In this document: in pieces, positions 5,107 to 32,520 of the stretch
Numbering within the stretch: the first letter of the stretch is position 1
How the letters are laid out: each line of letters opens with the position of its first letter
Assembly: GCF_004010195.1 (NCBI RefSeq)
Contig: NC_057718.1
Location: forward strand, 10,308,476 to 10,341,205
Length of the DNA stretch: 32,730 nt
Source: Chiloscyllium plagiosum
Taxonomy: Eukaryota
Direction of reading: 5' to 3'
Notes under the pieces: model-generated
Told to the model about the DNA's origin: nothing
What the model saw: the letters and a program-made list of their open reading frames with translations, nothing else
Database searches by the model: none
Program-made: the position numbers and the translations under genes

Positions 5107-5302
5107 ATGTTTAAGTGCGGACTCGCCTTCCCTCGCTGTAAATGGATCCTGCCTTTGCTGCTGCTCCTCGCTATCATCTTCGACATCATCGCACTGGCGG
5201 CTAGCTCCGGCTGGGTGGACTCCAAGTATCACTATGCCTCCCTGTGGGAACAGTTCAGGGGCAGGGACCCCAGCTGGGAATCCACCTCCCTCATGGAATA
5301 CG
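5107..5302 (+). CDS. PERP: PERP coding exon 1 (aa 1-65; TM1 and first extracellular loop)
   Basis: GCCATG start; [45 protein letters not shown] matches the PERP N-terminus; G|GTAAGG donor, phase 1. Confidence 0.96.
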
Positions 5303-5633: not shown

Positions 5634-5816
5634 NNNNNNNNNNNNNNNNNNNNNNNNNNNNNNNNNNNNNNNNNNNNNNNNNNNNNNNNNNNNNNNNNNN
5701 NNNNNNNNNNNNNNNNNNNNNNNNNNNNNNNNNNNNNNNNNNNNNNNNNNNNNNNNNNNNNNNNNNNNNNNNNNNNNNNNNNNNNNNNNNNNNNNNNNNN
5801 NNNNNNNNNNNNNNNN
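5634..5816. other. Assembly gap (183 N)
   Basis: Run of N. Confidence 1.
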
Positions 5817-7339
5817 AGAGCAGGGGGGCAGAGAGTGTGGGGAGAACAGAAAAGGGGAGAAATGGAGTAGGGAAAAGAATGTAGGCAACTGAGTCAAGCT
5901 GGAAGAAAGTTTAAATGGGAGAGGAAGATAGAGAAAGTGAGATTAAACTGAGAGGGAGGAGTGAAGAACTGAGAGAAGCGAACAAGAAATATCGAGTGTG
6001 GAGGAACCACAGAAAGGGAGAGGAAAGTAAGGCAGAGAATAGAAAGAAAATGTGAAAGTCGACACAAGATCAAAACAAAACCACACAAAAAAAAATCAGA
6101 AGAAAAAAGTGGTAAAAGGAAATGGGGGTGGGAGAAGGCAGTGAATTAATGAAAGAGATGGTGAAGAGGTCAGCGAAGAAGGTGAGAAACTGACTGAGAC
6201 AACAACATTAAAGGACAATCAGAAAGAGCCAGAGCTGAAAATGAAAGAAAAATCAGGTCATGAGGCAGTGAAGAAAAGAGATGGAGAGAGTACCAGGGGT
6301 CAAATGAAAGAGAACAAGAGGAAACATGAAAGTGAGGCAGACACAAGCAAAAATCTGAGAGGAGGGAGAGATGCAGGCAAGATGACTCAGAAAGGCAGTG
6401 AAAAGAAAATAGGTCTGTATGTGATAGAAACAATATGAGCGAAGCAGATCAAAGGGTGTGAGTGAGGACAGCGAGAGCAAAAATGTAAACGGACAAAGAG
6501 AGGGTGTGTGCAGAGGAGAAATAGATAGAGCAGAGAAGACATGTTGCAAAACGTAAAAGAGAGAGCAGTCAGAAGATGCATAAATTATCAAGTAAGAACA
6601 CAAGTCAGTTTCTGATGCCAAGTTTAATTGAAAACTAATCCAGTGCTTTCCTCCATTTTACTTTTTGGTTTGAATGTTGTCTGAAGCAGATATCAACTGT
6701 TGTCAGTAGAAGCCTGGCCAACTGACTGCCTACATAGTACATCTGTTAATAATACGCTCTAACACCGACACTGCAGTTCACTCCCTAACAGAGTCTTTAC
6801 TTCATGCAGCAGAATTAGAATGAAGCAACCTCCCGCCACTGACAGGACATCCATAACATTTAAAAAAGAATCCTTCAATAGGAAGAGAAAAATTGAGCAG
6901 AGACAGAAATCTGGTGAGGAGATTGCATGTACAGTCACAGAAAATGTGGGCCTTAGATAGGGAAAGGGAAATGAAATTGGCTTGGGAGAGGATTAAACTA
7001 GGAAAGAGAGATAGTGATGAGTCGGAAGTACATGGGAAGACGACTAGAATAGGGTGAGGTGAAATCATTTGGTAAATTTGAAGTTTGGGATTGTGAAGGC
7101 TGTACTTGAAGCTACTGGGAGACAGTATAGTCTGACAGCAACAGCAAACTTTTAACATAGTCCAAGGCACTTCACAGGAGAAATTTTAGCACTAGACCAC
7201 ATAAGGCAGTACTGAACCAGATGACCAGAAGCCTGGTCACAGAGGTAGATTCTGAGGGGCATCTTAAAAGAAAGAGGGGTATGGGGAAGGATTAACAGAG
7301 CTTAGAGCCAGGGTAGTTAAAACACAACTGTCAACTATG

Positions 7340-11056: not shown

Positions 11057-11463
11057 AGGTAAAAACAAGGATTGCAGATGCCACTGGGGAGACTAGACGC
11101 CTTCTCACAGAGCGCTTTAGGAAACATCTCCGGGACACCCACACCTCTACATTGGGGAGACTGGACGCCTCCTAGCAGAGCACTTTAGGGAACATCTCTG
11201 GGACACCCGCACCAATCAACCCCACCGCCCCTGTGGCCCAACATTTCAACTCCCCCTCCCACTCAGCCAAGGACATGGAGGTCCTGGGCCTCCTTCACCG
11301 CTGCTCACTCACCACCCGACGCCTGGAGGAAGAACGCCTCATCTTCCACCTCAGAACACTTCAACCCCAGGGCATNNNNNNNNNNNNNNNNNNNNNNNNN
11401 TTTCCTGCTCCTCGGATGCTGCCTGACCTGCTGTGCTTTTCCAGCACCACTCTAATCTAGCCC
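11057..11463 (+). mobile_element. Penelope-like element, 5'-truncated, GIY-YIG region, with 16-bp target-site duplication
   Basis: Translation LYIGETGRLLAEHFREHLWDTRTNQPHRPVAQHFNSPSHS..LEEERLIFHLRTLQPQG; flanking direct repeat ctatcaaatatgtaaa at 11041-11056 and 11464-11479; contains the gap 11376-11400. Confidence 0.88.
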
Positions 11464-22563: not shown

Positions 22564-23784
22564 GTGCAAAAGTAGTGCGGATGAAGTGGGAAAAAACCTT
22601 TTTCACACAGTGAGCAGTTTGGATCTGGAAAGCTCTGCCTGGAAATGTGGTGGAGGCAGGTTCATTTGAGGCACTGAAAGGTGATGAATGTTCGCTTCCA
22701 CTGAAATAGTGTGCAAGGTTTAGAGGGAGAGAGCTGAAGATTTGCACAAGGTAATTGTGCTAATTTGAAGAGCCAGCACAGGAAAGATGGGCCAAAGGGA
22801 CTGTTCCTGCTCAGAATGACTTTGTCTTCAGTGGATACTAGAGCAGTGCAGGTAAACCAGAGACTAGGTGGTCCCATACCTGTGTCTTAATTGCAGGAAA
22901 ATGTGAGGAAGCAGCAGGAATTCCAGGTGGAGAATGCAGTGGGAAGGAATGGGAGATGGTGCAGAGAACAGCAAGGAAGAATGAAGAGGGGAGGGACCAT
23001 GGTGCTATTGATAACTATGCAACCACAATACTATATATGGATGAGTACAAATAGGAGGAGTATTTGGTCTGGGAGCAACCTCTCTCTGTCAGGCTTTCCT
23101 ATTGAGCAGCTGCATAGAGGATTGCCTCCCAGTCCCGTGGGAGAAAGCACAAAGAGCTCTCAGGTTACCATGCCAAACGACCATTCTCACCCGCGTGGTT
23201 AGACTTTAAATGGGTCTTTCATTTCAAAGCATGGACCAGTGCCATTTATAGATCCCAGAGCTGAGAAATTTTTTTTGAGAGCTGGTGTGAGACCACACAT
23301 GCAGACGTGGTGTCAAGTGGTGAAACAATGACCTGCTTCCCAACTCTCTCTCTCAAAGAAAGTAAAATTCCCTTTTCCTTAAAACAGCCATTTCCCTTCC
23401 CTCAGCACAAGGCCATGTCTCTCTTCTCTGGTGGAAGTAAGCAATCCAGGGCCAATCTTAAAGAAAGACTGTCTCCCCCCCCATCATTCAGTCCTTTTGC
23501 TTTGCAGTTTATGGGAGATTTCTGTGTGCAGTTTTCCTCCATTAGAAGAAGTAATGGGTCGTAGAATGTTAATAACACAAAATGAGGCTTCCTAACCTTT
23601 CAGGGTCTCTGTAAGCGCAACTCAGTGCAAAAGTAGTGCGGATGAAGTGGGAAAAACCTTTTTCACACAGTGAGCAGTTTGGATCTGGAAAGCTCTGCCT
23701 GGAAATGTGGTGGAGGCAGGTTCATTTGAGGCACTGAAAGGTGATGAATGTTCGCTTCCACTGAAATAGTGTGCAAGGTTTAGA
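22564..23784 (+). repeat. Near-identical 160-bp direct repeat (22564-22724 and 23625-23784)
   Basis: The copies differ only by one A in a homopolymer, by visual comparison. Confidence 0.95.
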
Positions 23785-24358: not shown

Positions 24359-24496
24359 GATGGGCGAAAGCTACTGCAGCATTGCTGATAATCGGTTGTA
24401 TCCTGTTGATCATTTGCTTCATCCTGTCCATCTTTGCTCTTTGCAAGGAGCAATCGGGTCTGCTGAGAGTGATTGGTATCATCCTCTTTGTTGCTG
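24359..24496 (+). CDS. PERP: PERP coding exon 2 (TM2 to start of TM3)
   Basis: tcctttcattctaccAG acceptor; (G)WAKATAALLIIGCILLIICFILSIFALCKEQSGLLRVIGIILFVA; G|GTAAGT donor; 138 nt, phase 1/1. Confidence 0.95.
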
Positions 24497-25998: not shown

Positions 25999-26023
25999 CC
26001 CCCCCCCCCCCCCCCCCCCCCCC
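25999..26023 (+). repeat. (C)25 homopolymer forming the polypyrimidine tract of intron 2
   Basis: Directly precedes the AG at 26024-26025. Confidence 0.9.
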
Positions 26024-26025
26024 AG

Positions 26026-26234
26026 TCCTCTTCCAGTTCATCGCCCTCATCGTGTACCCAGTCAATTTCACCAAGACCCTCATCAAAAATGGCAACTATG
26101 AGTACAGCTGGAGCTACGGCTTTGGGTGGGGGGCCACCATACTGATGATCGGCTGTGGCATTTTCTTCTGCTGCCTTCCCAAGTACGAAGACGAACTCTA
26201 CGGTCAAGCTAAGCCCATCTACATCTACGGCTGA
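26026..26234 (+). CDS. PERP: PERP coding exon 3 (TM3, second loop, TM4, C-terminal tail, stop)
   Basis: (V)LFQFIALIVYPVNFT..YEYSWSYGFGWGATILMIGCGIFFCCLPKYEDELYGQAKPIYIYG*; the YPV, W-YGFGW and FFCCLP-YED motifs are PERP-diagnostic, and the frame is consistent with exon 2. Confidence 0.96.
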
Positions 26235-31896: not shown

Positions 31897-32520
31897 CATA
31901 AGAACATAAGAAAGTAAGACCTAGGAGCAGGAGAAGGCCATCTGGCCCCTTGAGCCTGCTCTGCCATTCAATAAGATCATGGCTAATCTTTTCATGGACT
32001 CAACCCTACTTAGCCGCGCTCTCACCGTGACCCTTAATTCCATTATTGTTCAAAAGAAATCTATCTCAGCTTTAAAAATATTTACTGAAGTAGTGTCAAC
32101 CACTTCACTGGCAGGGAATTCCACAAATTCACAACCCTCTGGGTGAAGAAGTTCCTTTGCAACTCAGTCCTAAATCTGCTCCCCCTAATTTTGAGGCTAT
32201 GCCCCCTTGTCCTAGTTTCACCCACCAGTGGAAACATCTTCTCTACGTCTATCTTATCAATTCCCTTCATAATTTTATATGTTTCTATATAAATGATCCC
32301 CCTCTTTCTTCTAAATTGCAATGAATATAATCCCAGTCTACTCAGTCTCTCCTCATAAACCAACCCATTGACTCTGGAATCAATCTGGTGAATCTCCTCT
32401 GCATCTCCTCTAGTGTCAGTATATCCTCTCTCAAGTAAGGAAACCAAACCTGCACACAGTTCCCCAGGTGTGGCCTCACTAGCACCCTGTACCCCTGTAA
32501 CATAATCTCCCTGCTTTTAA
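31897..32520 (-). mobile_element. CR1 LINE 3' end
   Basis: ORF 32082-32447 (YEERLSRLGLYSL..IETYKIMKG..TRTRGHSLK..FFTQRVVNLWNSLP); cataagaacataagaa tail. Confidence 0.9.

Follow-up and report, generated by a model that had tools for sequence, protein, structure and literature searches.

Both cysteines of the first extracellular loop were absent from the PERP protein encoded in the window (the whole 32,730-nt stretch of Chiloscyllium plagiosum DNA analysed here), with Phe at site 50 and Ser at site 59. Since most of the sampled sharks and rays and six bony-fish groups were also without the pair, the loss looks like a repeated and tolerated swap, not a one-off change. It is likely, judging from sequence patterns and structure models, that an aromatic/small pair packing on the conserved W57 of the short fish hairpin replaces the disulfide with function kept, and that, as a part of this reading taken as a whole, the window gene is the ordinary working PERP of the bamboo shark.

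The PERP frame started from an ATG at 5107 and ran through three coding exons with GT/AG sites, giving 180 residues and a single terminal stop. The features were as follows.

5107..5302, + strand: PERP coding exon 1, 196 nt, M1 to Y65 and one further base; carries TM1 and the first extracellular loop; followed by a GT donor, with the spliced contigs confirming where the exon stops
5254..5256, + strand: codon 50, TTC, Phe, in the column of the first loop Cys (Cys51 in human numbering)
5260..5262, + strand: codon 52, Gly, a hairpin position conserved in 36 of 37 Cys-less fish rows
5275..5277, + strand: codon 57, TGG, a Trp that fish conserve (W in 36 of 37 Cys-less rows, F in the remaining one); proposed to pack with the aromatic residue at 50
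5281..5283, + strand: codon 59, TCC, Ser, in the column of the second loop Cys
24359..24496, + strand: PERP coding exon 2, 138 nt, TM2 to TM3; AG/GT sites; spliced contigs
26026..26234, + strand: PERP coding exon 3, 209 nt, end of TM3, second loop, TM4, tail and TGA

An assembly gap (Ns) at about 5635-5817 fell within a purine-rich repeat near the start of intron 1, and 25 consecutive C (25999-26023) immediately preceded the exon-3 acceptor. In addition, the window contained tandem duplications of 249 nt and 68 nt, and fragments at 19-2026, 11121-11460 and 32082-32516 resembled what we take to be LINE reverse-transcriptase/endonuclease and GIY-YIG retroelement frames.

The spliced protein was identical to the annotated C. 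plagiosum PERP (180/180), shared 89% identity with Heptranchias PERP and showed 53% local identity to chimpanzee PERP by pairwise BLAST. Annotated PERPs were its best sequence match, and in the tree it was placed among them, with chondrichthyan PERPs forming one clade beside those of bony fishes. The PF00822 profile scored 56.2 bits on the spliced protein, against a curated cut-off of 26.7, while the individual exons scored under the cut-off. W36, L46 and W47, the W...LW of the first-loop motif, were invariant in a 42-sequence alignment and kept here, and the canonical two-Cys element was missing (F50, S59). The protein is a derived variant, kept in the family by descent and fold, and not a member with the canonical motif.

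PERP lay on contig C9 (10.31 Mb) of the C. plagiosum genome and the best TNFAIP3-like match on contig C3 (91.30 Mb), and a SOUL/HEBP search of the genome gave no match on C9. TNFAIP3 neighbours PERP in the human genome, and the two genes have adjacent locus tags in Caranx.

Cysteines occurred in the spliced protein at positions 4, 11, 79, 85, 94, 155, 160 and 161, with none in the first loop. In Heptranchias and Callorhinchus PERP the loop is equally long and has Cys exactly at 50 and 59, which fixes column homology without gaps, and these two columns were nearly invariant over the 42 aligned sequences. Pairwise BLAST against chimpanzee PERP put F50 on Cys51 but misplaced S59, owing to 5 extra residues in the mammalian loop; the assignment of the second site therefore rests on the fish orthologues. 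The earlier note, which had described a Cys-free loop with TTC at codon 50 and TCC at codon 59 and had set these on the two loop Cys, was right on frame, codons and columns.

The same codons were found in contigs from four sequencing runs (four studies with four organism labels), picked from 24 listed; one of the four may be the source of the C. plagiosum assembly itself. No difference was listed at codon 50 in any of the four; codon 59 was fully covered and unchanged in three, and the fourth ended at 5282. The contigs of two runs passed from exon 1 directly into exon-2 sequence and thus represent spliced transcript, while none of the runs listed in the search was recorded as RNA. Only three differences were listed in total, two of them synonymous and the third in the leader. 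Sequencing error at F50/S59 was ruled out by these independent contigs, two of them spliced, in agreement with the earlier note, which had judged such errors unlikely. A pseudogene was ruled out by the intact frame, the GT/AG sites, the full identity to the annotated protein and the spliced contigs. RNA editing back to Cys was ruled out by the contigs as well, within their reach, which does not extend to low-level editing since contigs drop rare variants.

For the distribution across vertebrates, 470 proteins were fetched, and a PERP loop could be scored in 366 by an alignment-based tally whose counts are records and not independent species. The other 104, with exon 1 missing or TMEM47-like, included Rhincodon, Narcine and older models of C. 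punctatum and S. torazame with wrong first exons. Both loop Cys were present in 288 of the scored records, neither in 71, one in 1, and 6 were unreadable; the 71 are themselves non-independent, as they hold isoforms, partial contigs and the window's own protein twice. The lone single-Cys record was a partial Dissostichus model, out of register past the first Cys and thus doubtful. Two annotated isoforms of seabream PERP, both Cys-less, differed in the second half of the first loop, which suggests duplicated or alternative exon sequence.

An open frame in intron 1 of the window (23026-23202, + strand), single copy in the genome, served as a false first exon in the older C. punctatum model, and a 7-residue stretch of it was also present in the S. 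torazame model. Its use as a first exon is probably an annotation error, though it may be an alternative first exon.

Both Cys were absent in all 10 named galeomorph species (site 50 Y in 7 and F in 3; site 59 S, P, E or Q) and in all 7 named batoids (F or Y at 50; P or A at 59), so that 16 named elasmobranch species besides C. plagiosum have the Cys-less state. Both were present in the one squalomorph, Heptranchias, and the one chimaera, Callorhinchus. Among teleosts, W50 was found in the clupeoids (Clupea, Alosa, Sardina, Engraulis, Coilia), while Denticeps keeps the pair; in Eucyclogobius, while Neogobius and mudskippers keep it; and in Oryzias, while Cololabis and Xenentodon keep it. Y50 was found in Syngnathus, Hippocampus, Phycodurus, Stigmatopora and Vanacampus, against the pair in Nerophis and Dunckerocampus; in Fundulus, against Cyprinodon, Poecilia, Xiphophorus and Anableps; and in Morone, Symphorus, croakers, seabreams, Siganus, Brachionichthys, Nelusetta, Mola and puffers, against Perca, Siniperca and wrasses. 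The sister relations, and the Morone, croaker, seabream and puffer group as a single clade, are assumed here from general fish phylogeny.

The gene tree supported the clupeoid Cys-less group with 95 and the seahorse-pipefish group with 89, while the puffer-seabream-croaker group did not come out resolved; in NCBI taxonomy, Nerophis and Syngnathus share a subfamily. A gene-tree tally of 15 changes was set aside, because weakly resolved branches among the perch-like fishes make it too high. The six teleost groups together with one or two elasmobranch events would thus amount to 7-8 independent losses of the pair. Cys-Cys is, as far as these comparisons tell, the ancestral PERP state, because it was kept in chimaera, bichir, sturgeon, gar, coelacanth and lungfish and by both shark TMEM47-like paralogues. 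No loss was seen in 83 tetrapod-type loops, a set with sparse coverage of birds and reptiles.

The earlier note had recognised a paired loss in an otherwise intact gene, which holds, since both Cys are gone and the gene is intact, expressed and apparently single-copy. Its framing as a change of this lineage had to be given up, for the loss is found in every one of the 17 galeomorph and batoid species named and in six teleost groups. The objection that it had itself raised, common absence of these Cys across fish, thus holds in part, although the pair is present in most fish records (205 of 277 fish-type loops).

At site 50, F among the 10 galeomorphs was confined to 3 hemiscylliids, with Y in the remaining 7, so the parsimonious path is C to Y to F and the bamboo shark F came probably from Y and not directly from C. 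Each codon is indeed one substitution from TGC, as had been pointed out, but for site 50 this is probably not the route taken.

Two losses in elasmobranchs, one in batoids and one in galeomorphs, are favoured here, because the six teleost losses were accompanied by no clear regain. A single loss at the elasmobranch base, followed by regain of the disulfide in the hexanchiforms (Heptranchias), has the same parsimony cost, and would agree with Y/F at site 50 in both galeomorphs and batoids and with a batoid P59 reachable via S; hidden paralogy would be another form of this reading. When sites 50 and 59 were removed, Heptranchias still grouped weakly with Callorhinchus (82/90), but this grouping was no longer resolved with the whole hairpin removed, NCBI taxonomy places Heptranchias within Selachii/Squalomorphii, and a single shark clade including it was not rejected by the AU test (p 0.354). 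Y/S is also a frequent outcome in teleosts, so a parallel path is to be expected in galeomorphs and batoids. With a single squalomorph sampled and gene trees that give no decision, the regain is considered a minor possibility.

The residues that replaced the pair were strongly patterned. Site 50 was aromatic throughout the 71 Cys-less records (Y 41, W 15, F 12, H 3), while site 59 was aromatic in none (S 28, E 10, Q 9, G 8, P 7, A 6, T 3). Under a simple model with the single-base neighbours of TGC, the probability that 7-8 independent events would each put an aromatic residue at site 50 was 0.001-0.005, a figure that a general beta-strand preference would raise. An aromatic residue stood two residues before site 59 (three with an insertion) in 71/71 Cys-less records, and G52 in 67/71. 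The spacing of sites 50-59 was 9 in 64/71 Cys-less and 201/205 Cys-keeping fish loops, while the 83 tetrapod-type loops had a spacing of 5-16 and none had both G52 and W57. W57 and G52 may permit the loss but do not predict it, because they are as common in Cys-keeping fish (193/205).

No sign of relaxed constraint was seen in the remainder of Cys-less PERP. W36, W47, L62 and W67 were invariant in both classes in a 66-row fish subset (37 Cys-less), and flanking loop residues were unchanged between them. Outside the hairpin, conservation against two outgroups in 20 Cys-less and 27 Cys-keeping teleosts was 0.759 versus 0.746 (p 0.46) and 0.587 versus 0.593 (p 0.13). Independent pairs on well-supported branches numbered only 4, all concordant (sign test p 0.125). 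The strict loss of both Cys together in 7-8 lineages is good, though indirect, evidence that the PERP bond is real.

The AlphaFold2 model of window PERP had four TM helices and an extracellular beta-sheet. It matched MP20 (TM 0.71), claudin-19 (0.66) and claudin-15 (0.71), with a best Z of 18.2; TARPs also matched, and a profile alignment put the two PERP Cys on those of claudin-19. No PERP structure was found in the structure searches, and exon 1 on its own, used as a sequence query against the PDB, had 0 matches. Strands 48-53 and 56-61 were the same in window PERP (pLDDT 85.9) and Heptranchias PERP (89.7). Many rows of the alignment from which the Cys-less model was folded keep the Cys, and this tilts that model towards the hairpin. 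As the turn between these strands has two residues, 50 would lie opposite 59 and 52 opposite 57, contacts deduced from secondary structure.

In the ancestral jawed-vertebrate PERP, Cys50 and Cys59 would thus face each other across the first-loop beta-hairpin in a claudin-type disulfide. The fish hairpin, short and of fixed length with the G52/W57 pair beside the Cys, could trade this bond for a large/small pair. An aromatic residue at 50 (Y, W, F, rarely H) would fill the space and pack on W57 diagonally, as residues do in hairpins, while site 59 would turn small or polar, S at first and later P, A, G, E, Q or T; the P of 7 records suits a regular beta-strand poorly. A lone extracellular Cys would be purged instead of long tolerated, so that the second Cys is expected to be lost after the first, and function would remain unchanged after the swap. 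The long tetrapod loop would not permit what the short fish hairpin allows, the fish/tetrapod contrast being one phylogenetic comparison.

The swap could instead be adaptive, a wider form of the change in desmosomal adhesion that the earlier note had suggested: without the disulfide, the part of PERP exposed outside the cell would differ in adhesion strength, redox sensitivity or the binding of partners or pathogens, and selection would have favoured this repeatedly. The 7-8 repeats with the same chemical outcome would fit this, as would a paired loss that must pass through a single-Cys state absent from good models, and in claudins the pair supports pore or barrier function according to the available text of PMC6888627 and PMC11172262. 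Against it, close relatives retain the pair and the flanking loop residues are the same in both classes. Moreover, we know of no obvious skin type or habitat common to the Cys-less lineages (rays, herrings, seahorses, medaka, mummichog, goby, puffers). Such convergence appears rather improbable, and so, to the same degree, does its bolder form, in which the PERP disulfide is a two-state switch flipped 7-8 times in fishes by the aromatic/small route since the Cys-less state changes junction behaviour, may have flipped back in the hexanchiform shark, and is locked in the disulfide state in tetrapods with their longer, variable loops.

Plain relaxation, in which the fish loop disulfide is unimportant and decays while mutation bias and beta-strand preference shape the residues, we hold to be a little less probable still. 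A single base change in a Cys codon can give Y, W or F, the step from TGC to TAC being a transition, and site 59 drifts over seven residues; but R, S and G are equally near and yet absent from site 50 in 71 records, the pair has long been held in Cys-keeping fish lineages, and W36, W47, L62 and W67 stay invariant in 37/37 Cys-less rows. Neutrality of the loss cannot be assumed, because claudin-2 and claudin-5 need these Cys for full function, as stated in the portions consulted of PMC6888627 and PMC11172262.

For a second PERP, the check for a Cys-retaining paralogue that had been proposed was run on the C. plagiosum genome with three queries (shark PERP, lizard PERP-like and exon-1 DNA), each of which returned the single PERP locus and no other, a count that is a lower bound in an assembly with gaps. 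Two genes that we label TMEM47-like by resemblance (C12:22.62-22.67 Mb and C15:28.55-28.57 Mb) keep both loop Cys at about 30% identity to window PERP, and a family scan of the genome gave 41 claudin-type matches, none on C9. In other vertebrates, two PERP-like genes are present in coelacanth and in caecilians and a divergent PERP-like copy in lizards, and all scored copies keep both Cys. That the gene is an artefact, a pseudogene or a redundant copy whose role is covered by a Cys-keeping paralogue, for which the Ns in intron 1 and the lower-bound nature of the searches leave some room, is therefore extremely improbable against the intact spliced frame, the GT/AG sites, the annotated identity, the single locus and the same state in 16 further elasmobranchs.

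PERP is a junctional tetraspan localised in mammals to desmosomes and other junctions (PMC3691483), in whose available text the terms cysteine, disulfide and loop were not found; the accessible portions of PMC11317759 and PMC4141909 held nothing specific on the PERP loop Cys. A nonsense variant at human Cys51 has been reported, the residue being called highly conserved and a disulfide going unmentioned in the part of PMC10379359 at hand, and the fish losses temper that description. The superfamily motif W...GLWxxC(8-10x)C is given in the sections available of PMC3879130 and PMC11172262, and in claudins its two Cys form a disulfide (PMC11172262, same sections). Motif erosion is not unheard of within the superfamily, given the nematode members lacking one or more key motif residues described in the available part of PMC3879130. 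The literature search, run mainly over papers outside subscription journals, found no report of PERP loop-Cys loss and no experiment on the PERP disulfide. The sequences themselves are public annotations, and what would be new is the repeated, chemically consistent replacement across fishes.

The loss of the loop Cys gives no evidence of a shark-specific change in adhesion. The natural Y/W/F-plus-small variants are ready tools to probe the role of the claudin-fold disulfide beyond folding, and the comparison is feasible in standard models, with medaka, fugu, skate and catshark Cys-less and Danio (D. aesculapii cluster) and mammals Cys-keeping.

Compared with known systems, window PERP shares W36, LW46-47, four helices and the beta-sheet with the claudin/PMP22/EMP/MP20 superfamily (PF00822), while both motif Cys are absent. 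The TMEM47/VAB-9 clade is the closest PERP paralogue in the available text of PMC3879130, and the shark TMEM47-like genes, unlike window PERP, keep both loop Cys. Mammalian PERP belongs to the same family, but the window loop is 5 residues shorter, with a fish-type G52/W57 hairpin and F50/S59. The Cys-less teleost PERPs are the nearest in character, with an aromatic residue at 50, a small or polar one at 59 and W57 kept, though their origins would be independent of the shark's, and the clupeoids, Oryzias and the goby have W50, not Y/F.
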